The position numbers and the translations under genes are program-made. The notes below the pieces were generated by a model. That model was not told the DNA's origin, did not search any database, and saw only the letters and a program-made list of their open reading frames with translations. A stretch of DNA of 63,820 nt, the filler included, from Acidimicrobiia bacterium (GTDB taxonomy: Bacteria; Actinomycetota; Acidimicrobiia; Spongiisociales; JAENVV01), in NCBI GenBank assembly GCA_041577335.1. It is 3 parts of 3 records of this genome, joined end to end, with 100 filler letters (N's around TTAATTAATTAA, not from the genome) between each part and the next. Parts side by side here need not be neighbours in the genome. Positions count along the whole stretch, not along the records: positions 23,867 to 47,624 come from JBFGJH010000052.1; 2 more parts are not named here. The stretch is one strand, 5' to 3'. Shown here in pieces: positions 23,767-47,724 of the stretch (the stretch's first letter is position 1; the number at the start of each line of letters is the position of its first letter).

Positions 23767-23866
23767 NNNNNNNNNNNNNNNNNNNNNNNNNNNNNNNNNN
23801 NNNNNNNNNNTTAATTAATTAANNNNNNNNNNNNNNNNNNNNNNNNNNNNNNNNNNNNNNNNNNNN
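23767..23866. other. Artificial contig-joining linker
   Basis: N-run, TTAATTAATTAA (stops in all frames), N-run. Confidence 0.98.
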
Positions 23867-26336: not shown

Positions 26337-26795
26337 CTACGACGCTGAGTCGATGCGCACAACGATCGGAGCGTCGATGTCGGGGTGCAAGCTCCGGTGC
26401 ACGGTGCACGTCTCGGCGGCCCGCCGGAATCTCTTGATCAGTGTTTCTTCGATGGGGGCGGCAATCGTGATGGTGGTGGCGAGGCGGCTGATTCGCTTCG
26501 GATTGGTTCCGAGCTCCTTTTCCACGGCGATCGAAATCGCTTCTAGAGGGACGGAGTGACGTTCTGCCATTGGCGCAATCGAGCTGCTGATGCAGCTGCC
26601 CAAGCCAGCCGCGATCAGATCGGTGGAGGAAAAAGTGGAGCCACCACCGCCGAATTCGGGCGAGACATCGGTCATGATGACGCTGCCGGTTGGCCCGTGG
26701 CGGATCTCAGTTTGTCCCTGGCCGAGAGGCCGATTGTGAATTGTGCCCATCTGGGCGACAGCATAGGTTGTGACACCGAACCGGAGCCAACTCAT
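26337..26795 (-). CDS. OsmC/Ohr family protein
   Basis: TDLIAAGLGSC ... CTVHRSL (two conserved Cys); start uncertain. Confidence 0.85.
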   Translation of the reverse strand: MSWLRFGVTTYAVAQMGTIHNRPLGQGQTEIRHGPTGSVIMTDVSPEFGGGGSTFSSTDLIAAGLGSCISSSIAPMAERHSVPLEAISIAVEKELGTNPKRISRLATTITIAAPIEETLIKRFRRAAETCTVHRSLHPDIDAPIVVRIDSAS

Positions 26796-26862
26796 CCGGG
26801 CTTGGCGACCACCGGCATGAGAGCAGTCGGCGGCGTAAACGGTTCTGCCCAGGAAGTGGTCG

Positions 26863-29388
26863 CTACAGCAACTGTCGTGCCTCGAGACGTTTGTAGGCGA
26901 TGTAGCCGGGGAGCACAGGGAACCAGAATGTTCCGATCCTGAAGAGGAATACAGCCGGGACGGCGACAGTGGCGCTGAGCCCGAAGGTCGTCAGGCCGGC
27001 GATGAGTGCAGCTTCGGCGGCGCCAACGCCGCCCGGGGTGGGCGCAGCCTGGGCGAGCGCTGATCCCGCGAGATAGACGGCCGTGACACCGACGAAGCCA
27101 ATTCCGCCACCGAATGCAGCGATGCTGTACCAGAGGGCAAAGACGTACGACATGGTGATGGAGAAGCTGCCCGTGAACAGCGCCAGGATCTTGGCGGGAT
27201 TAGCCGTCACCTTCGCAACACCAGCCGCCGACTTGCGCATGATGGGCGATATCCGCCGCAGCCAGAGTTTCCGCCCCCACGGCAGCACCATCACTCCACC
27301 TGCCGCAGTCAACACAGCGACGAGGCCGAGAAGGACCGTTTGACCGGATGGCAGCGATATCACGTCGGTCGCCGAGCGGCCTGCCGTTGTTACGAATACC
27401 GCCAGGAGCAGGACGTGGGTGATCACGCCGGCCACGTTGTTGAGTCCCACGCCGGCAACTGCCACGGCCGGATCGACCCCGCTCTTCTGTAGGTAGCGGA
27501 TATTGGCGGCGATACCGCCAACCTTGGCCGGAGCTATCCGGTTGAAGAAGGATGCAGCCAGTTGAGCCAAGAGCGTCGGGAAGAAGCGCAGCCTTGTGGG
27601 CATTGCCCCGATCAGCGCGATGCTGGCCCCGACGTAGGTCAGAAACGAGAAAAGGAGAACCAGGGGAAACCACTGCCAATCGGCGTCGACCACCTCGCCA
27701 AAATCCACCTGGGCGAGCTGGGGGATCAAGAGGTAAAACGCAAAGCCCAACATGACGGTCGTGAAAACGGTTCGGGAACTCACCCGCTCCAGCTTCTCGA
27801 GATCGACTGTCTCGAGGTTGGTTACCGCCTTGACTTCATCCCGGAGCTCGCCGAGGAGAGCCTTCTGCTTCTTGGCAGCGCTGCGGGTCGACGAGCTGAG
27901 AGCGGTTGGCTGGATTCGGGCTGCCGACGCAGCGACGGCTTCTGGTCCGAGACCTTCGACTGCGGCCGCGACAGACCGTTGGGCGCCAACGATCAAGGCG
28001 AGTGCCACCAACAGTTGGGCCGTGTCGCCATTGAGCTCACGTTCATCCGCCGAGAGTTCGGCGAATCCAAAATCGACGATCCAGGCATGGCCTCCCGAGT
28101 CGAGGAGGACGTTGGCGGTGGTGAGGTGCCGATGGGCAATTCGGGCATCGCGGATACGCCCAATCTGGTCCCATATCGACCGAAGAACTTCATCTGTGAC
28201 GAGGCGCTCGTCGACGCCATCGAGGGCGTCGGCTCCAGTTTCCTCGAATACGATGAGCATCGAGTTGGGCGGGACGTCGGCCACTCGCAGCATCTGTGGA
28301 GTTCGTACGCCGGCCGCGGACGCCGAGAGCGACATTCCCGCCTCATGCCCGACCTCCCGACGGAGAGATGCGAACGGGCGCTCGTCGCCGAAGCCCTTGA
28401 GGCGGATCATTCGGTACACCCGGAAGAGGACCTCAGCGGCCCTATCTTCAGGTGTTCGGAGCTTGACGTAGACGCTGCGCCCGTCCCCCAATCGAGCCGA
28501 GAATCGGCGACGTTCGTCGGCGGCAGCTCCGGTCGGCTCGATCGATGTGATGTCAAAACCGTGGTCGGTGAGGGCGGTCGCAACTTCGAATGTTTTGGGA
28601 GTCCGATCCGGGGATCCGAACGCGAGCAGCGTCGCCCCTCCAATAGCGTATCCGAGCGCCATCATCAGCAGGGCGTCAATGGGTGGTAGGAGACCATCGA
28701 TCACGCGGACCATCAGGAAGATCACGAGGACTATCCAGGTGGCACGCCGCCACTTTCGATTCAGCCACGGGGTGAGTGTTGATATCGCGGCGGCTAGCCC
28801 TGCCAAATAGACGATCGAAGGAAACCCGTCTCCGGGCACGCAAGCGTGAGACCCAAGGACCTGTCCCAACGTATCCGGTTGGGTCACGATGTTGCCCACC
28901 GAATTCGGGTCGGCGGCACCGATGCTCTGTTGGGTGGAACCGACCAAGTTCGCGCAGACCCAAGAGGGCGGTGTGACGGTTAGCTCCGTGGATGCGATTC
29001 CGGCGAGTTCGCCCTGGATGCCCCACGAAACGAGACCCGCCGCAGTGACTGCGAGTGCTACGAGTGCCAGTCGGCGATATCGGCGCCGGACCACCAGCAC
29101 CGCCACCACAACCACGGGAAGGGCCCATGCCAGGAGCTGCACTGCGAGGATGGTCGTGACGACGAGGGGAGATGGCAGCTTCTCGAAAGCGCTGATCACC
29201 TCGCTCGCCACGCCGATACTGACGGTGTCGAGGGCGCTCGCCATCAGGTAGCCGATGACCCCTGTCGCGAGAGCGACGATGGTTCTCAGGAGGTCGCTTG
29301 GCTGCCTCCCCCGTCGATACACACCATCATCGTGAACCCGGAACGACACGGCAGACGGAGCTTCAGGAGATTCGGATTCGACCATCAC
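26863..29388 (-). CDS. Multidomain membrane protein: degenerate PAP2-like TM region + kinase-like domain + LPG-synthase/UPF0104 flippase-like TM domain
   Basis: GFPS in the N-terminal TM region; YVKL, AHRHL..ANVLL, IVDFG; C-terminal PAKVGG...APTPGGVGAAEAAL...FR. Confidence 0.8.
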   Translation of the reverse strand: MMVESESPEAPSAVSFRVHDDGVYRRGRQPSDLLRTIVALATGVIGYLMASALDTVSIGVASEVISAFEKLPSPLVVTTILAVQLLAWALPVVVVAVLVVRRRYRRLALVALAVTAAGLVSWGIQGELAGIASTELTVTPPSWVCANLVGSTQQSIGAADPNSVGNIVTQPDTLGQVLGSHACVPGDGFPSIVYLAGLAAAISTLTPWLNRKWRRATWIVLVIFLMVRVIDGLLPPIDALLMMALGYAIGGATLLAFGSPDRTPKTFEVATALTDHGFDITSIEPTGAAADERRRFSARLGDGRSVYVKLRTPEDRAAEVLFRVYRMIRLKGFGDERPFASLRREVGHEAGMSLSASAAGVRTPQMLRVADVPPNSMLIVFEETGADALDGVDERLVTDEVLRSIWDQIGRIRDARIAHRHLTTANVLLDSGGHAWIVDFGFAELSADERELNGDTAQLLVALALIVGAQRSVAAAVEGLGPEAVAASAARIQPTALSSSTRSAAKKQKALLGELRDEVKAVTNLETVDLEKLERVSSRTVFTTVMLGFAFYLLIPQLAQVDFGEVVDADWQWFPLVLLFSFLTYVGASIALIGAMPTRLRFFPTLLAQLAASFFNRIAPAKVGGIAANIRYLQKSGVDPAVAVAGVGLNNVAGVITHVLLLAVFVTTAGRSATDVISLPSGQTVLLGLVAVLTAAGGVMVLPWGRKLWLRRISPIMRKSAAGVAKVTANPAKILALFTGSFSITMSYVFALWYSIAAFGGGIGFVGVTAVYLAGSALAQAAPTPGGVGAAEAALIAGLTTFGLSATVAVPAVFLFRIGTFWFPVLPGYIAYKRLEARQLL

Positions 29389-29433
29389 TCACCTGCCCAA
29401 TCGTTCTGCCATCGGGATCCATCGACTCTGGTG

Positions 29434-30282
29434 CTATTCGACCAATTGGTAGCCGTTGTCTTTGGCGAATTGGACTACCTCGTGTGCTGGATAGAAACCG
29501 ATCGATTCCTCTGCCTCCGCTGCGACGGTTTCGGCCAGGTCTCCCTCCGCGTCGAACTCGTAGGTTATGCAGCCGCCATCGAAACTGAAGAACCAGTTCC
29601 CCCGATAGAACACATCCGGCGCTGCGTCTTCGATCAGGTCGAGTGCATCGAGGGGCTCGATGCCGCGGCCGGTGGCCGCAGGGTTGTTACTTCGGAGGTC
29701 CACCGTTCCCTCATCGGCGTCGAGTTCGTCGATGATCCACACGTATTGGTCTCGCTCGAGCGCCTCGTCTATGCGCGCACTGATTGGCTGATCCATGTTG
29801 TGGTCGATGGTGAACACCACCGGTCGGTCGTCCAGATTGACGTCGGCGAAGCGTTCGGCGAGTCTCATCGACGTCACCATGGGCCCACTTGCGGACGGTA
29901 CGAGCATGATCTCGATTTCGGCTGGCTCATACTCGACGTTTTCGTACCGTTCGATCTCCGATGAACCGGAGAAGACCTGAACTGCGCCGGACACATCGCA
30001 AAGCTCCGTTACTTTCACCGTCAAAAAGACCCGAGCCGCGCGTGCGATTTCGAACCCTGATTCACCCTTTTTCGCGAACCACTCGACCGAGTCCCACCCG
30101 AGTGGTCGTTCCTCGAGGCAGGGCGTGAACCGAGCGGTCGGCACGGCCTGGACGTTGAGTATGTTGGCCCCCGAGATACGACGTTCCGGCGAGGTACAGT
30201 CGGCCTCCCCGATGCCAAGATTGGTGCATGAGCTCACCAGCATGGCGAAAGCAGATAGCAGCACGACGGTTCGTGTGTTCAC
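29434..30282 (-). CDS. Lipoprotein of unknown function coupled to the PAP2-kinase gene
   Basis: Lipobox VSSC; GTGA overlap with the upstream gene; QAVPTARFTPC, GGCITYEF. Confidence 0.8.
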   Translation of the reverse strand: MNTRTVVLLSAFAMLVSSCTNLGIGEADCTSPERRISGANILNVQAVPTARFTPCLEERPLGWDSVEWFAKKGESGFEIARAARVFLTVKVTELCDVSGAVQVFSGSSEIERYENVEYEPAEIEIMLVPSASGPMVTSMRLAERFADVNLDDRPVVFTIDHNMDQPISARIDEALERDQYVWIIDELDADEGTVDLRSNNPAATGRGIEPLDALDLIEDAAPDVFYRGNWFFSFDGGCITYEFDAEGDLAETVAAEAEESIGFYPAHEVVQFAKDNGYQLVE

Positions 30283-32012
30283 AACAGCCCGATCCCCCGA
30301 ACTTCATCGATGATCGCGGAGATGACGAATAGCACGAGCAGAATGGCGGCGACCGTCAGGCGGATACGCCGAGGGCTCCACCGCTGGATGGATATCGGCT
30401 CGGCGTGTGGGGAGAGATCTCGAAACTCTTCAACGAGGTCGATTCCCTGCTGCTTCTTGAGCAGCGCAAGCGAGCTGCGGGATTGCGATGGCAGCGTCAC
30501 GCTGCGCGTCGCCGCAAACGCCTCAGCGATGTCTTCTGGCGCGAACTGGAGCAAAGCCCGCTGATATACCCGCTCGGCGTCCGTCCGCAACGCGAGGAGA
30601 ACCATCATGTTGGCGAGATCAACGGCCTGGCGCCAAGGGCTCGGGCGCACGGTGCCAAACGCTACGTCGATCAATACGACTCGGCCCTGGCTCAGCATCA
30701 CGTTGGCAGGCTTGATGTCACGGTGGGCAAGCCCGGCGTCCCACATTCGGCGGATGACGTCGAGGGCGTCGTCGATGATGGGGTCCGTCACCTCGGCGTG
30801 GGTGAGTTCTTGAGCATCTTCGAGGAAGCCGGTGACGATCAAGTATTCGCGTTCGGGAGTGATCTCGACGATTCCACACGGCGGGGCACTCGGCACACCG
30901 GCGTCGAGCATCAGACGCTGGATGTAGTCCTCGTATTCGACCAGTCGGCGGACCGATGCGAACCTCACCTCGTCTTCCAGCGAGCCGTAGAGGATGGTGC
31001 GTCCAACCTTGTACCAGCGGTCCGATCGTAGGTGTACCTGGCTATAGAGCTTGGCAAAGAGGTATTGATCGGGATCCCCTGCCACCTTCAATCGCAACGG
31101 TGTTGATCCTCCCGACCCCTCGAGTCCAAAAGGCTCGACATCGAGAACGTCGACGCCGAGCTGTTCGAACAGAGCCTTGCGGATGGCATCGCCACGTTCC
31201 CCTCCCACATCGAGGTGAGCGGTGACGCCGCGTTTCCATGTGACAGGAAACGCTGTTTCGGGGACGAACCACCGAAACAACACCACGGTGACCGCAGTGG
31301 CAAAGATGGCTGCCACGACTACGTCGCTCGGATGGTCAACACCCAAGTAGAGCTGGGCCATGATGAGTGCGAGTACCAGTGCACCAGAAACGCCGAGAAA
31401 CATATTGCGACGTCGGCCGGGTGGGACAAGGGCGTAGGCCATTGCGGTAAGCGTGACGGTGAGGCCGGCGACTGGTGCTGAAGGGTGGGACGGGCCTTCC
31501 CACCCGCCCAGCAGGGGCACAAAGGGCCGGGGCCTCCCGATGACCTCCTGCATGATTTCAACGGTCCCTTGGACCAGGAGAACTGCCAAGAGCACAGCAA
31601 AGAAGTGCCGCCAACGACGCACCCATGCCAGGGAAATCAACGCCGCGAAGCGCAGGATCCTGAGGAATAACCGGTCTCCCAGCACTGTCACGGCATCGGC
31701 GATCGACGTGAGGGTGCTTGTACGTAGCTCGACCAGGGACTGCAGGAACGCATTGTCTCGTTGAGTCCACCAATCCCTCGAGGCTGGAAACGCAAAGAGG
31801 GAGATCCAGATGGCGATCATGATGATGCCCCCGATCAGCCAGACGCGTCCGGTGGTTCGAAGTTCTCGCTGAAGCGGCGCCTTCTCCCCGCTCGGCCGGC
31901 GGCGCCGGCCGGCGACCCGGATGCCTGCCAGGCGCAGTTCGCGGCGAGCACCGATGTCGGGAATCTCGCGGCCGATGGGGTCTGGCCCTTGCGTTTGGGG
32001 TGGCGTATTCAT
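30279..32012 (-). CDS. PAP2-like membrane domain fused to a protein-kinase-like domain
   Basis: GRPRP / HPSAP / LYLGVDHPSD; Gly loop GSGGS, LFAK, HRDIKPAN, LIDVAF; C-terminal TM. Confidence 0.82.
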   Translation of the reverse strand: MNTPPQTQGPDPIGREIPDIGARRELRLAGIRVAGRRRRPSGEKAPLQRELRTTGRVWLIGGIIMIAIWISLFAFPASRDWWTQRDNAFLQSLVELRTSTLTSIADAVTVLGDRLFLRILRFAALISLAWVRRWRHFFAVLLAVLLVQGTVEIMQEVIGRPRPFVPLLGGWEGPSHPSAPVAGLTVTLTAMAYALVPPGRRRNMFLGVSGALVLALIMAQLYLGVDHPSDVVVAAIFATAVTVVLFRWFVPETAFPVTWKRGVTAHLDVGGERGDAIRKALFEQLGVDVLDVEPFGLEGSGGSTPLRLKVAGDPDQYLFAKLYSQVHLRSDRWYKVGRTILYGSLEDEVRFASVRRLVEYEDYIQRLMLDAGVPSAPPCGIVEITPEREYLIVTGFLEDAQELTHAEVTDPIIDDALDVIRRMWDAGLAHRDIKPANVMLSQGRVVLIDVAFGTVRPSPWRQAVDLANMMVLLALRTDAERVYQRALLQFAPEDIAEAFAATRSVTLPSQSRSSLALLKKQQGIDLVEEFRDLSPHAEPISIQRWSPRRIRLTVAAILLVLFVISAIIDEVRGIGLL

Positions 32013-32166
32013 GCCCGTCGCGTTCCGCCCTCCAATCAGTGTCGGCTGCCGAAGCTACCACCACCTCGTTCGGCCCTGCGCCGGGCAGCGAACCAACTCG
32101 TCGAGGCGCATTGCCTTGTGCCTTCGCCTGGTGGCTGGATTCGCGGAGAAGTAGCCTCACGAACCT

Positions 32167-32811
32167 GTGGCCGCCTCACATTCCCGTTCGTTGTTGACTG
32201 TTGAGATCCTCGGCGCGTCCCTTGCGGTCCTGGGGGTGTCTTGGGTCATCGCCGCCCCTGGTGGAGTGCCAGAGTGGGAGCAGAGCGTCTTCCGGCTCTT
32301 CAATGGCCTACCAGATTGGCTGTTTCCGGTGATTTGGGGGCCGATGCAGCTGGGTTCTCTGGTCGGAGCATTGTTGGTTGCGTTCGGCCTCTTTGCGGCG
32401 CAGCGGCGAGCTTGCGCAGTGACTTATGCGGCCGCCGTCGTGATCGGGTGGCTCGTAGCGGTTGGAGTGAAGCAGGTTGTCGGGCGAGAGCGTCCCGTCG
32501 GTGCAGGGCTCGACGTCATGGTCCGAGGCGCCGATGCATCAGGCTTTGGATTCATCTCGGGGCACACGACCGTTGCGTTCGCCGGCGCGACGGTGATCTG
32601 GGCCTTCTACCGGCGTTCCTGGGGCCTCGCTGCCTTTGGCCTGGCGGGTGTGGTCGGAATCTCACGGATGTACGTGGGAGCGCACTTGCCGCTCGACGTG
32701 GTCGGGGGTGCTGCTGTGGGAGTCTTTGTTGGAGGTCTTGTCACATTGATTGAACACATCATCGGGTCGAGGCGTGAGGTACCAACGATCGAAGATGGCA
32801 TGCACAACTAG
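32167..32811 (+). CDS. PAP2 family phosphatase with intact motifs
   Basis: KQVVGRERP, FISGH, SRMYVGAHLPLD. Confidence 0.9.
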   Translation: MAASHSRSLLTVEILGASLAVLGVSWVIAAPGGVPEWEQSVFRLFNGLPDWLFPVIWGPMQLGSLVGALLVAFGLFAAQRRACAVTYAAAVVIGWLVAVGVKQVVGRERPVGAGLDVMVRGADASGFGFISGHTTVAFAGATVIWAFYRRSWGLAAFGLAGVVGISRMYVGAHLPLDVVGGAAVGVFVGGLVTLIEHIIGSRREVPTIEDGMHN

Positions 32812-34607: not shown

Positions 34608-35999
34608 TCAACCGATGTTGCCGACGCCCGAGCGCTCCATGTCTCCCCATTCGACCTCACCGCGCCGCCAGAACATCGCCCGCACTCGCCACCACACCGT
34701 CTGCTGGCGGGGCCCGAAGTTCTCCATGGTGGCGACCGCCAACAGGGTCAGAGCCTGGCGTGGCGAGTTGAAATGGCCGTACTGCTCATCGAGCGCCAAT
34801 GCCCCAATCGAATTGAGGATTCCGAGCAGGAACGCGATGAGAAGCAGCCACAGGAACGTCGAGACGTTGAGGAATCCGAAGATGAGTGCAATTGGGATGA
34901 TGATCCAGCCGATGAACTCGACGATTGGCGCAAGAAACTCGAAGAGGAAGAAGGCCGGCCAGGCCGCCATGCCGACGACCCCGTAGCGAGGGCGCAGGAG
35001 CATCGATTTGTGGTCGGACACCACTTGCAGCAGGCCCCGGTGCCAGCGTATGCGCTGTTTGCGCAACACCGAACGTTTCTTGGGGACCTCGGTCCACACG
35101 ACGGCATCGGGCGCGTAGACGATTCGGTATTCGTTGCCGGCATCTCGCTGGGTTCGGTGGAGGCGCATCGTCACGTCGAAGTCCTCGCCCAGGTGATGCT
35201 CGGGAAAGCCGCCGCACTCGATCAGCGCCGTCTTCCGAAACACCCCATAGGCACCGGACACGAGCAACAGGCCGTTCAACTCTGACCACCCGGGCCGGGC
35301 TGCAAGGAAGGAGCGCTGGTATTCCACGACTTGAACGAGCTCGGTGAGGCCGATCGGCAGTCCCGGTTCTTCAACGCGGCCATGAGCGACTTGGCACCCA
35401 TTCAGTGGGCGGATGTTGCCGCCGACGGCAATGGTCCGGTGGCGGTCTTCGACGAACGGGCGCATCGAGTGCAGGAGGGATTCTTCCTCGAAGATCATGT
35501 CGGCGTCGGTCACCAGTATGTATGGGTAGCGGGCGGCGTTGATCCCTGCGTTCAGCGCATCTCCCTTTCCGCCGTTCTCCTTGTCGACCACGGTCAGGTT
35601 GATCGGCAAGGCGGACTGGTAGATGGCGCGGATGGGATGGTGATCGAGCTGGGGCCGGATGGGGATGTCGACTCTCCTGAGTTGAAAGGCGTCGATGAGC
35701 GCTTCGAGCGTGTCGTCGGTGGAGCCGTCGTTGACGACCACGATTTCGAATCGGGGATAGGCAAGGATGGTCCGGGATCTGATCGAATCGACGATTCCGG
35801 CTGCTTCGTTGTAAGCGGGCACGACGAGCGAGACCGGAGGGCTCGAGTCCGACTGAAGCATGTCGTGCGTCCGACCGTAGGCCGTGACCCGCTTGGCCCT
35901 TCTCAGGGCTCGCGCCGACATGGCCAGCACGACCGCGGTCTGCGCCTCGATGGCGATGAAGAAGATCAGAACGATGAGTGATGCAACGGCGAGGACCAT
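34608..35999 (-). CDS. Processive GT2 glycosyltransferase (PgaC/IcaA-like)
   Basis: PAYNE, DGSTD, DAD, GED, QRIRW, C-terminal TMs, WGDMER. Confidence 0.9.
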   Translation of the reverse strand: MVLAVASLIVLIFFIAIEAQTAVVLAMSARALRRAKRVTAYGRTHDMLQSDSSPPVSLVVPAYNEAAGIVDSIRSRTILAYPRFEIVVVNDGSTDDTLEALIDAFQLRRVDIPIRPQLDHHPIRAIYQSALPINLTVVDKENGGKGDALNAGINAARYPYILVTDADMIFEEESLLHSMRPFVEDRHRTIAVGGNIRPLNGCQVAHGRVEEPGLPIGLTELVQVVEYQRSFLAARPGWSELNGLLLVSGAYGVFRKTALIECGGFPEHHLGEDFDVTMRLHRTQRDAGNEYRIVYAPDAVVWTEVPKKRSVLRKQRIRWHRGLLQVVSDHKSMLLRPRYGVVGMAAWPAFFLFEFLAPIVEFIGWIIIPIALIFGFLNVSTFLWLLLIAFLLGILNSIGALALDEQYGHFNSPRQALTLLAVATMENFGPRQQTVWWRVRAMFWRRGEVEWGDMERSGVGNIG

Positions 36000-37129
36000 C
36001 AGCCGACGCCAGGCTCGAGCAAGTAGGGCCTTCCCAGCTGCTGAAGGAGACGTCTGCGTTCGGGGTCGGTCGCCGCGTCATCGAGATAGCCTGAGGCCAT
36101 CAGTTGCGCCAGGGCGGCGTCGACGGCGAAAGGATCTTCGTCGTCGAGCATCTCGAAGAGCGCGTCGATTCCACCCTCGATGTCGGCCATGGATGCTGCC
36201 GCATTCTGGCGCACCCACCACGCTTCGTCGCGGAGAGCGCGCGACAGAGCCTCCAGCGTGCTCCGGTCGTTGTGGCGTCCCAGCGCCGTCGCTGCTTGGG
36301 CGCGTACTCGCCAGTCTTCGTCAACGAGTCGTTGCAGCAAGGCCCTGGTGACGCGCTGGCCCCACGGATGGCCGAGTGCGGCGGCCGCCCGGATCCGCAA
36401 CCAGGCGTCGTCGGCGCTGAGTGCCTGGAGGAGAGCTGTCTCGGCGCGGGGATCGCCGATGAGGCCCAGTATCCGCACCACGACCGGCAGGTGGGCGGGT
36501 ACCGGTGTAACGGCAGGGCCGGCGATCAACACGTGGTTTGACAACGTCTGGACTGCGGCCGGCCCGAAGCGCACGAGAGAATCGGCCATCCGCTCCGCCG
36601 CCCACCGGTCCTCCTTCTCCAAAGCAGCTAGAACCGCCGGCGCATCCGCCTCGGCGCCGAGGATGGAAAGCCCGGCGGCCGCACTGATCCGCACTTCGAC
36701 CGATTTGTCCGACAAGGCAGTCCTGAGGTCCTTCCGCGAGGATGGGGACGCGATTTCGGCCAGGCTCGCCGATGCGCGAAGACGCACCGATTCTCGTTTG
36801 CTCCCCACCAACTCGGCGTGGAATTGGTCGACGAGCCCAACTCGATGAGCCAATTCGACGAGCAAGTCGCGTTCGGCGCCGTCGACGAAATCGAGGAAGT
36901 CGACAAGGGTCTCGCGGAACGCCGGGTCTTCTGCCCACTCCGTTCGATCATGGGCAGGCAGGGTCAGCCGACTGACGATCTCACCGAGTGCTCCGATGTA
37001 CACGGCGCTCCGAAATGCTGCTGCCTTGGCGCGTCGATGGCGCCACACTTTGATGACGAATAGGGCCACCATCGCCGACACCGTGAGCGTGGCCAGGATC
37101 AGCGCGATGAGTGGAAGGTCGGGGGTCAA
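35999..37129 (-). CDS. Membrane-anchored HEAT-repeat protein
   Basis: N-terminal TM; repeated L.D....VR..AA..LG units. Confidence 0.88.
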   Translation of the reverse strand: MTPDLPLIALILATLTVSAMVALFVIKVWRHRRAKAAAFRSAVYIGALGEIVSRLTLPAHDRTEWAEDPAFRETLVDFLDFVDGAERDLLVELAHRVGLVDQFHAELVGSKRESVRLRASASLAEIASPSSRKDLRTALSDKSVEVRISAAAGLSILGAEADAPAVLAALEKEDRWAAERMADSLVRFGPAAVQTLSNHVLIAGPAVTPVPAHLPVVVRILGLIGDPRAETALLQALSADDAWLRIRAAAALGHPWGQRVTRALLQRLVDEDWRVRAQAATALGRHNDRSTLEALSRALRDEAWWVRQNAAASMADIEGGIDALFEMLDDEDPFAVDAALAQLMASGYLDDAATDPERRRLLQQLGRPYLLEPGVG

Positions 37130-37515
37130 GGTTTCTTCAAGTCGCTTCGCCCGAGTACGAAGCTGATCTCTTCGAGTAGTTCGTCGGCTGAAATCGGCTT
37201 GGCGAGGTAGGCGTTGGCGCCGAGCGCCAGGCTTTCCACTTGCGTCTCAGCGTCGGCGATGGCCGAGATCATGATCACTGCGAATTCCCTTCCCTGCCTG
37301 CGCCACTCCTGCACCACCTCGGACCCCACCCTGCCGGGGAGCACATGGTCAACCAAGGCGAGGTCCAGATCGTTGTCGAGGCCCATTTGCAGAGCCGTGT
37401 TGCCGTCGGACGCCGTCAAGACAATCGCGCCGACCTGCTGGAGCCACCTACGTATCAGCTCCGTAACGAGACGGGAGTCGTCGGCAACCAGAACGAGTGG
37501 CCGATGAGGATCCAT
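37126..37515 (-). CDS. Single-domain response regulator (CheY-like)
   Basis: LVADD, LVDHVLPG, MISA, LAKP; start ATG 37515. Confidence 0.88.
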   Translation of the reverse strand: MDPHRPLVLVADDSRLVTELIRRWLQQVGAIVLTASDGNTALQMGLDNDLDLALVDHVLPGRVGSEVVQEWRRQGREFAVIMISAIADAETQVESLALGANAYLAKPISADELLEEISFVLGRSDLKKP

Positions 37516-37601
37516 GGAGGCTAAGCGTAGTTCCCTGGGTCGTCTGCTCTCGTGGTTCCTGCTTTGCAGAGGCGGCTCCTGGGTACCACCATGATCGGCC
37601 C

Positions 37602-38726
37602 ATGAGCTCGTCACTTCGGATTGGACCCCTGCGCGTTACGCCTCCCGTTGTGCTCGCACCCATGGCGGGCGTCACGAATGCGCCTTTTCGGCGACTATGT
37701 CGGGAGTTCGGCGCCGGCTTGTACGTGAGTGAAATGTTGGGAGCGCGAGCGATTGTTGAAGATGACGAGCGCACGCTGCAGCTTGCCGAGTTCGGCGCAG
37801 ATGAGCAGGTACGCAGCATTCAGATCTACGGAACAGAGCCGATGTCGGTGGGCGGGGCGGTTCGGCGACTCGTTGACGAGGGCCGGGTCGATCACATCGA
37901 CATGAACTTCGGCTGTCCAGCGCCGAAGGTGACCCGCCATGGTGGCGGGGCGGTCCTTCCCTACAAGCGGCGCCTTTATGAGTCGATCGTGACTGCCGCC
38001 ACCGGGGCAGCCGGCGCGGTTCCGGTCACGGTGAAGTTCCGAATGGGAATCGACGAGGCACATCTCACGTATATCGAGGCAGGGCAGATCGCAGAAGCTG
38101 CCGGGGCGGCCGCGGTTGCGTTGCATGCCCGGACTGCCGAACAGCTCTACTCGGGCAATGCTCGGTGGGAGGCCATAGGTCAGCTGGCGGAGGCCGTTAC
38201 GTCGATCCCTGTGCTCGGAAATGGTGACATCTGGGAGGCCGCCGACGCTATCGAGATGGTGGACCGAACCGGATGTGACGGAGTCGTGGTGGGCCGGGGA
38301 TGCCTGGGCCGGCCATGGCTGTTCCGTGAGCTCGCCGAAGCGTTTGCGGGGAAGCCGATCACGCCTCCGCCCGACCTCGGCGAGGTAGCGTCGATCATGG
38401 TCCACCACGCCCAGCTACTCGTCGACCAGTTCGGCGTCGCCCGAGGGATCCGAAGCTTTCGCAAGCACACCTCGTGGTACCTGAAAGGCTTCGTGGCCGG
38501 GAGCGACGTGAGGCGGCGACTCAACCTCGTCGAGTCTGTCGACCAGGTGGAAGCGATCCTCGCCGATTTGGACCTGTCGCAGCCGTTCCCGGCCGGCGCG
38601 GCGCGCATGACTCGAGGCCACGCCCATGGCCCCAGACCCGTCAAGCTGCCGCATGGATTCCTGACCGATCGCGATGCGCTCGACGAGTTGCCGGCCGCCG
38701 CCGCATTGGCAGTGTCGGGCGGATAA
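37602..38726 (+). CDS. dusB: tRNA dihydrouridine synthase
   Basis: LAPMAGVT, NFGCP, LHART, GNGDI, GRG.LGRPW; start ATG 37602. Confidence 0.93.
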   Translation: MSSSLRIGPLRVTPPVVLAPMAGVTNAPFRRLCREFGAGLYVSEMLGARAIVEDDERTLQLAEFGADEQVRSIQIYGTEPMSVGGAVRRLVDEGRVDHIDMNFGCPAPKVTRHGGGAVLPYKRRLYESIVTAATGAAGAVPVTVKFRMGIDEAHLTYIEAGQIAEAAGAAAVALHARTAEQLYSGNARWEAIGQLAEAVTSIPVLGNGDIWEAADAIEMVDRTGCDGVVVGRGCLGRPWLFRELAEAFAGKPITPPPDLGEVASIMVHHAQLLVDQFGVARGIRSFRKHTSWYLKGFVAGSDVRRRLNLVESVDQVEAILADLDLSQPFPAGAARMTRGHAHGPRPVKLPHGFLTDRDALDELPAAAALAVSGG

Positions 38727-47624: not shown

Positions 47625-47724
47625 NNNNNNNNNNNNNNNNNNNNNNNNNNNNNNNNNNNNNNNNNNNNTTAATTAATTAANNNNNNNNNNNNNNNNNNNN
47701 NNNNNNNNNNNNNNNNNNNNNNNN
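47625..47724. other. Artificial contig-joining linker
   Basis: N-run, TTAATTAATTAA, N-run. Confidence 0.98.

Follow-up and report, generated by a model that had tools for sequence, protein, structure and literature searches.

A recurring actinobacterial gene module of decayed lipid-phosphatase domains, kinase folds, a lipoprotein and a predicted PplT-type flippase

Few bacterial phospholipid flippases have been characterised, and their regulation is an open question. Escherichia coli PplT binds the PAP2 enzyme PgpB, and also PgpA and PgpC, in a two-hybrid test, the evidence for its lipid translocation being partly indirect; the available text of the same report catalogues several Actinobacteria in which a kinase is fused N-terminally to PplT (10.1101/2022.03.11.483950). 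In the MprF/LpiA-AcvB and GpgSDF systems, as far as the accessible texts describe them, a cytoplasmic modifier is paired with a PplT-type flippase, and an outer hydrolase accompanies LpiA (PMC13197417; PMC12713373). The pseudokinase of the mycobacterial flippase MurJ/MviN is phosphorylated by PknB (excerpt of PMC6180346, citing Gee et al. 2012), and inactive members of the PAP2 family exist, for example PLPP7 (excerpt of PMC7564803). Here we describe a cluster of four genes, A to D, that links a PplT flippase domain to a kinase, a PAP2 phosphatase and a lipoprotein. The cluster lies in a 63,820-nucleotide stretch of DNA from an Acidimicrobiia bacterium (GCA_041577335.1), referred to below as the window, and comprises the following features.

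Gene A, 30279-32012, minus strand: 577-amino-acid protein with an Arg-rich N-terminal tail (RRRRPSGE), a decayed PAP2 domain (~55-250), an intact minimal kinase of the Bud32/RIO type (~262-545) and a C-terminal transmembrane helix.
Gene B, 29434-30282, minus strand: 282-amino-acid lipoprotein whose four cysteines are invariant; the gene shares 4 bases with A.
Gene C, 26863-29388, minus strand: 841-amino-acid protein beginning 45 bases after B, with a decayed PAP2 domain, a predicted pseudokinase and a predicted PplT/UPF0104 (MprF-type) flippase domain (~536-838).
Intergenic region between A and D, 32013-32166: 154 bases.
Gene D, 32167-32811, plus strand: 214-amino-acid stand-alone PAP2 lipid-phosphate phosphatase, divergent from A.

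The coordinates and lengths agree with a sequence-only reading of the window, which had described 577-, 282- and 841-residue products in a row beside a divergent PAP2 gene. The window joins contigs C51, C52 and C74 of a 3.4-Mb, 91%-complete genome, with N runs at 23767-23866 and 47625-47724. All four genes lie on C52, and the cluster is therefore not an artefact of a contig junction. A sigma-70 promoter scan of the A-D intergenic region gave no consensus.

The core: kinase-fold protein A and lipoprotein B

Analysis of other genomes revealed that the A-D cluster is one version of a recurring actinobacterial gene module, the core of which is A with lipoprotein B. Out of 113 confirmed A matches, 79 loci were kept, 46 of them well flanked, and genes within 6 kb were counted as linked. 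The counts are not independent, since some of the genomes are related and a few were counted twice, and a Fisher p of 0.0015 therefore overstates the association. B was found near A in 71 of the 71 loci with sufficient downstream DNA. The two genes are fused in the same frame in 3 of the 79 loci and in 11 of 20 further loci picked from a sample of the phylum; full fusion proteins were read, and in them B sits behind the last transmembrane helix of A. Among 201 sampled Actinomycetota genomes, 24 held a strong match to A and 23 a match to B, all 23 within those 24. A PplT domain was linked to A in 28 of the 46 well-flanked loci, compared with about 1.4% expected by chance at four PplT loci per genome. 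A stand-alone PAP2 was linked in 29 of the 46, and kinase, PplT and intact PAP2 occurred together in 22. The gene association on which the sequence-only reading was built is thus found elsewhere. The loci nearest to that of the window are mostly labelled Acidimicrobiia.

The PAP2 domain of A was recognised by Pfam PF01569 (30.5 bits; cut-off, 27.2), and its top match in the Protein Data Bank (PDB) is Bacillus subtilis PgpB/YodM (5jki, E 1.6e-14). Comparison of homologues revealed that both catalytic histidines are gone, in keeping with the decayed motifs first noted in the single sequence: Pro replaces the C2 His in 71 of 78 sequences, and the C3 His position is Asp or Glu in 78 of 80 and His in 0 of 80. 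At the C1 position, Lys is outside the five commonest residues; Arg-Pro is retained, and a His follows one position after the C3 site in 70 of 80. With the motif roles given in the accessible part of PMC7564803, the loss of the C2 and C3 His indicates that this domain cannot run normal PAP2 chemistry. The idea that A is a bifunctional kinase/phosphatase was ruled out by the same motif loss. A rewired site formed by the conserved residues H176, D226, H227 and D230 is possible.

The kinase fold of A had been read as intact, and the homologues agree. K321, H430-R431-D432, K434, N437 and D449 are each present in 82 of 82 homologues. By role, the beta3 Lys, the alphaC Glu, the catalytic Asp and Asn and the Mg-binding Asp are kept in 81 to 82 of 82, and the serines of the glycine-rich loop in 80 of 80. 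The catalytic loop reads HRDxK in 82 of 82; the Lys of this motif is a mark of protein Ser/Thr kinases. An acidic E-D-E patch is equally conserved (82 of 82). No kinase family model was matched above its cut-off: the best NCBIfam match was arch_Bud32 (E 2e-6, 27 vs 125 bits), Pfam Pkinase gave 21.6 bits, under the cut-off of 31.7, and the APE motif was not present. Bud32, RIO and UbiB act as ATPases or nucleotide switches. The putatively cytoplasmic tail, RRRRP[S/T]GE, retains its hydroxyl residue in 73 of 74 sequences; a second set gave 26 of 28. Several A paralogues occur in one genome, up to six among the matches listed. In one locus (L013:8001-9730), A is split by a frameshift.

B carries a signal peptide and a lipobox, its four cysteines are invariant in 95 aligned sequences, and 920 representatives match it. 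Pfam and NCBIfam scans gave no family hit, neither Pfam nor the PDB gave a sequence match to the short form of B, and all Atlas matches were below 0.9. In the predicted structure (pLDDT 95), an insert confined to the long form (mature residues 101-205; window ~29616-29928) adopts the anticodon-binding fold of class II aminoacyl-tRNA synthetases (aaRS). It superposes on the anticodon-binding domain of threonyl-tRNA synthetase (ThrRS) with a Z score of 12.6 and a root mean square deviation (rmsd) of 2.8 over 98 aligned residues, and it matches ThrRS by sequence at E 5e-6. PF03129 is matched by 19 of the 95 family members and gives no match with the window protein alone. A literature search found no paper on a ThrRS-like insert in an exported lipoprotein. 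The core of B resembles Tsi3, BT_1490, 3lyd and LpqN, which share a PsbP/Mog1-like fold (Z 6.3-7.6, 110-115 aligned residues, rmsd 3.3-4.0; for LpqN, Z 6.3, 111 aligned residues, rmsd 3.5); the likeness comes with no sequence match and may reflect a common arrangement. A second lipoprotein, of the OpuAC/OsmF binding type, adjoins A directly in 23 loci (L053, L057, L059-L064, L066-L068, L070-L073, L076, L078, L079, L084, L087, L089, L093 and L099); none was seen with the aaRS-type insert, and no permease stood beside it among the recurring neighbours scanned.

Protein C, the flippase position and accessory genes

Judged by alignment, C is a collinear paralogue of A. The two proteins align over 429 columns (99.9%, E 1.5e-32), the N-terminal part of C is matched to D by hhalign (95%, E 2e-8) as a PAP2-derived domain, and the flippase domain of C starts with a helix that aligns with the last transmembrane helix of A. 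This domain scores 98.7 bits with LPG_synthase_TM (PF03706; cut-off, 33.4) and 51.6 with TIGR00374 (cut-off, 43.2), as a member of the PplT/UPF0104 family and predicted lipid flippase. The match to the MprF model is restricted to model positions 6-294 of 841 (42 vs 600 bits), and there is no aminoacyl-phosphatidylglycerol synthase domain. In the 55 closest homologues, PSxxY and RLIDGLLxPxD occupy the catalytic motifs of the PAP2 domain, and the C1, C2 and C3 residues do not occur. In the kinase domain of the same 55, the catalytic loop is HRH in 51, HRN in 4 and HRD in 0, while K309, E349, N426 and D439 (the DFG Asp) are retained in 55 of 55; the best match is again NCBIfam arch_Bud32, under its cut-off (46 vs 125 bits). 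Loss of the catalytic Asp in a conserved fold identifies it as a predicted pseudokinase. The earlier description of C as a repeat of the A layout, with an HRH pseudokinase and an added flippase-like domain, therefore stands, and the HRD of A against the HRx of C holds across both sets of homologues. That description had traced the decay to HRH only; the Gly-rich loop is gone as well.

The dead domains of C are under purifying selection: the ratio of nonsynonymous to synonymous substitution (dN/dS) is about 0.05-0.18 in all three domains, a value that comes from three distant homologues with dS near saturation. In the Atlas, C matched only unnamed or automatically named actinobacterial clusters. 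Mycobacterium tuberculosis Rv0585c is presumably a further family member.

Four states were found in the C family. In the first, an intact PAP2 domain, an intact kinase and PplT form one protein (P0204 and L131; L131:6178-8577). The second combines a dead PAP2 domain with an intact kinase and PplT (L011, L124, L125, L128 and L129). In the third, an intact PAP2 domain is joined to a mostly decayed kinase and the flippase is separate, often right behind A-B (L057, L102, L104-L108, L110-L115 and L117-L122; L116 has the order PplT-PAP2-kinase). In the fourth, PAP2 domain and kinase are both dead and PplT is attached, as in the C of the window, its paralogue on contig C34 and named Streptomyces homologues. 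That paralogue, the second C-family gene of the host genome (G000:C34:11659-14142, L081), is more decayed (HGS), and no A adjoins it. In a quick version of the kinase tree, all A kinases formed one clade, and the HRH group was nested in HRN and HRD relatives; the Asp was lost several times separately.

Of the 79 A loci, 36 have the flippase as a separate gene, 10 have it within C and 0 have both. Since the two never co-occur, C takes the place of the flippase and is not an obligatory second kinase. Among the 24 genomes with A, 18 carried C-family genes; among the 177 without it, 17 did (one being the unpublished G120), giving 35 of the 201 genomes sampled. Searching by C alone gave 13 window-type loci, with A or B adjoining in 5 and PAP2 in 2, the remainder being mostly short contigs. 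Among C-type kinases near A, 1 of 21 has the full motif set. The sequence-only reading had proposed a fixed heteromer centred on a kinase/pseudokinase pair. This was not supported: a C-type kinase was linked to A in only 5 of the 46 well-flanked loci, C occurs without A, and some C-type kinases are intact. An obligate pair was accordingly rejected as a general rule, a stand-alone flippase being usual.

D matches PF01569 over the cut-off (60.1 bits) and keeps K..RP, SGH and SRxxxxxHxxxD, the three motifs already noticed in its sequence. Its subtype is that of the intact PAP2 domains carried by C-type kinases at other loci. Of 67 stand-alone PAP2s beside A, 66 keep all motifs. D was not in the fetched flanks of any of the 8 other A-selected loci that have a C of the window type; it is accessory, and fixed membership is not supported. 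The closest relative of D (L043:7305-7891) has the same divergent position and is split.

Several further genes and variants were seen. A HAD protein with a weak match to phosphatidylglycerophosphate (PGP) phosphatase lies near A in 8 of 79 loci. In the clade nearest the window, this YqeG-like HAD, often with an MMPL transporter, adjoins A or C (L002, L004, L008, L009, L011, L020, L030, L074 and L173). Two-component and TetR genes occur in a minority of A loci only. In the window, a response regulator, a HEAT-repeat membrane protein and a family 2 glycosyltransferase lie in tandem at 34608-37614 on the minus strand. A near-identical strain (L166) is 98-100% identical over B, the 5' half of C and the part of A that it shares, but about 76% identical over the flippase domain of C (window 26600-27900); either recombination has recently swapped the domain or the assembly is chimeric. 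An open frame at L083:1414-3024 (minus strand) places a GNAT acetyltransferase domain ahead of a PplT domain and may be a real fusion.

Possible functions of the module

We favour, at a probability of about 0.45, the reading that A is a receptor-type Ser/Thr kinase. Acting with B, its decayed PAP2 domain would detect a lipid phosphate at the outer face of the membrane; A would phosphorylate, and so regulate, the PplT flippase, through the pseudokinase of C where present and otherwise at a stand-alone flippase. A would also autophosphorylate its RRRRP[S/T] tail, and D, with its intact PAP2 site, would remove the lipid phosphate. The signal peptide of B and its position behind the last helix of A in the fusions suggest that the PAP2 site and B face outward and the kinases inward. 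The ligand is probably a lipid phosphate, because the top PDB match of A is PgpB, E. coli PplT binds PgpA, PgpB and PgpC, and a PGP-phosphatase-like HAD lies nearby; phosphatidylglycerophosphate, phosphatidic acid and polyprenyl phosphate would be candidates. A signalling role fits the HRDxK loop, the Ser/Thr tail, the acidic patch, the obligate outer partner B, the paralogue expansion and the adjacent binding lipoprotein. Repeated catalytic loss with continued purifying selection fits a regulatory role of the domains of C.

Several observations weigh against this reading. Only 16 residues separate D449 (DFG) from D465 (helix F) in A, which leaves the kinase without a normal activation segment, and Pkinase is joined among its top family matches by Bud32, RIO, Kdo and APH; the PDB kinase that it matches best (8k20_B) aligns through an equally short link. 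All-intact PAP2-kinase-PplT proteins occur without B and read more simply as a make-flip-remove enzyme, and the cargo in characterised PplT systems is the product of the fused or adjacent enzyme. PplT is not linked to A in 18 of the 46 well-flanked loci, C is not at most A loci, and C pseudokinases are retained in genomes without A. Among C-type kinases unlinked to A, 5 of 33 keep HRD and the Asn. No FHA, PP2C or transcription-factor partner recurred among the 54 recurring neighbour representatives scanned.

The strongest rival, somewhat doubtful but better placed than the others, holds that A is a lipid kinase at the inner leaflet, that PplT flips its product and that on the outer side the intact PAP2 takes the phosphate off or passes it on, in a make-flip-remove cycle like that of LpiA/AcvB or in a reverse salvage; B would accept or present the lipid. 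The all-intact fusions P0204 and L131 and the permuted frame at L116 fit this well, as do the recurrence of kinase, PplT and intact PAP2 in 22 of 46 loci and the intact motifs of nearly all stand-alone PAP2s beside A. The partner phosphatases are lipid enzymes, the PGP-phosphatase-like HAD among them, and the core of B resembles LpqN. There is also precedent, since the enzymes of MprF and GpgSDF make the cargo of their own flippase and LpiA-AcvB offers a similar case (PMC13197417, accessible text). However, the HRDxK loop and the conserved basophilic Ser/Thr tail point to protein phosphorylation; the obligate extracellular partner, the fusion topology, the paralogue expansion and the adjacent binding protein also argue against it, and most C-type proteins are kept despite lost kinase residues.

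It is improbable that only A-B forms a unit and that C and D are loosely clustered, separate lipid genes, C being a PplT flippase with passive relic domains. Close relatives do differ in the strand and side on which C lies with respect to A-B, the other loci examined with a window-type C lack D, C is present in 17 of the 177 genomes that have no A, and A is patchy (4 of 40 relatives, and not in a 98%-complete genome of the same genus). However, PplT is linked to A far above the chance level, C and a stand-alone PplT never occur together, linkage outlasts inversions, A or B adjoins 5 of the 13 loci found by C alone with most others on short contigs, and the dead domains of C are under purifying selection.

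Least likely of all, the kinase folds would be membrane ATPases or nucleotide switches that power or gate the movement of lipid through PplT and leave no lasting phosphorylated product, a view in line with the Bud32 matches of A and C, the short link shared with 8k20_B, the four residues C keeps after losing the catalytic Asp and the energy use by PplT left open in the accessible text of 10.1101/2022.03.11.483950, but one that leaves the invariant Ser/Thr tail and the obligate extracellular partner unexplained and is opposed by the missing Gly-rich loop of C.

Under the receptor-kinase reading, a tentative history can be proposed, in which a three-in-one PAP2-kinase-flippase ancestor gave rise, by duplication and selective catalytic loss, to a receptor kinase (A with B) and to flippases gated by dead phosphatase and kinase domains (C). 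If true, this history would add an undescribed family of trans-membrane lipid-phosphate switches, with direct feedback from outer-leaflet lipid phosphate to lipid flipping; a dead lipid phosphatase serving as kinase sensor would be a new input domain in bacterial signalling, and C-type gated flippases would be retained across many Actinomycetota. Every on/off combination occurs in nature, and the all-intact P0204 and L131 among them make the chemistry directly testable. An answer would annotate a widespread orphan family, given the presence of C-type proteins in 35 of 201 genomes.

Comparison with known systems

The module is uncharacterised, real and built from known parts. Literature searches, with subscription journals and preprint supplements outside their reach, turned up no study of it, in agreement with the sequence-only reading, which knew of no characterised system with this layout; the accessible text of a paper on the lipocone (PMC12419801) contains nothing on it. 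The SEAE1 PAP2-kinase module, as far as the available text describes it (10.64898/2026.09.18.752743), was set aside as a Segetibacter cluster of separate genes. The present analysis adds that either C or a separate gene occupies the flippase position, that a single protein can hold all three domains intact and that the Ser/Thr tail is conserved; it also adds the fold of B and of its insert.

Among membrane PAP2 phosphatases such as PgpB/YodM (5jki), D is an ordinary member. The N-terminal domains of A and C derive from that family and differ in lacking the C2 and C3 His and in being fused to kinase folds. The kinase of A shares its best family and PDB matches, and the short post-DFG link, with the minimal kinases Bud32, RIO and Kdo, but its scores are far under the cut-offs, its loop is HRDxK, and it is membrane-anchored. 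The insert of B, an exported lipoprotein, matches class II aaRS anticodon-binding domains. Its core is a moderate match to LpqN- and Tsi3-like lipoproteins; LpqN binds a lipid mimic and MmpL transporters (PMC7458404, available text), a function that the likeness in fold does not imply for B.

C has the architecture of the catalogued kinase-PplT fusions (10.1101/2022.03.11.483950); the available text of that report is silent on the dead kinase, on a PAP2-derived domain and on the partners A and B, and describes no test of a kinase-PplT protein. MprF/LpiA-AcvB and GpgSDF likewise pair a modifier with a PplT-type flippase, in the portions of PMC13197417 and PMC12713373 available, but the module has a kinase fold and a PAP2 in place of an aminoacyl or glycosyl transferase. 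The closest parallel to the regulation proposed here is MurJ/MviN with PknB, as outlined in the accessible part of PMC6180346, where a flippase is fused to a pseudokinase and a receptor kinase with an extracellular domain is the regulator. The flippase families differ, and no Pfam match to MurJ, a PASTA kinase or FHA was found in A-D or in the 54 recurring neighbour representatives, so that the module has no PASTA or FHA partner. In the module, moreover, kinase and pseudokinase are paralogous, both carry PAP2-derived domains, and the distribution is patchy.

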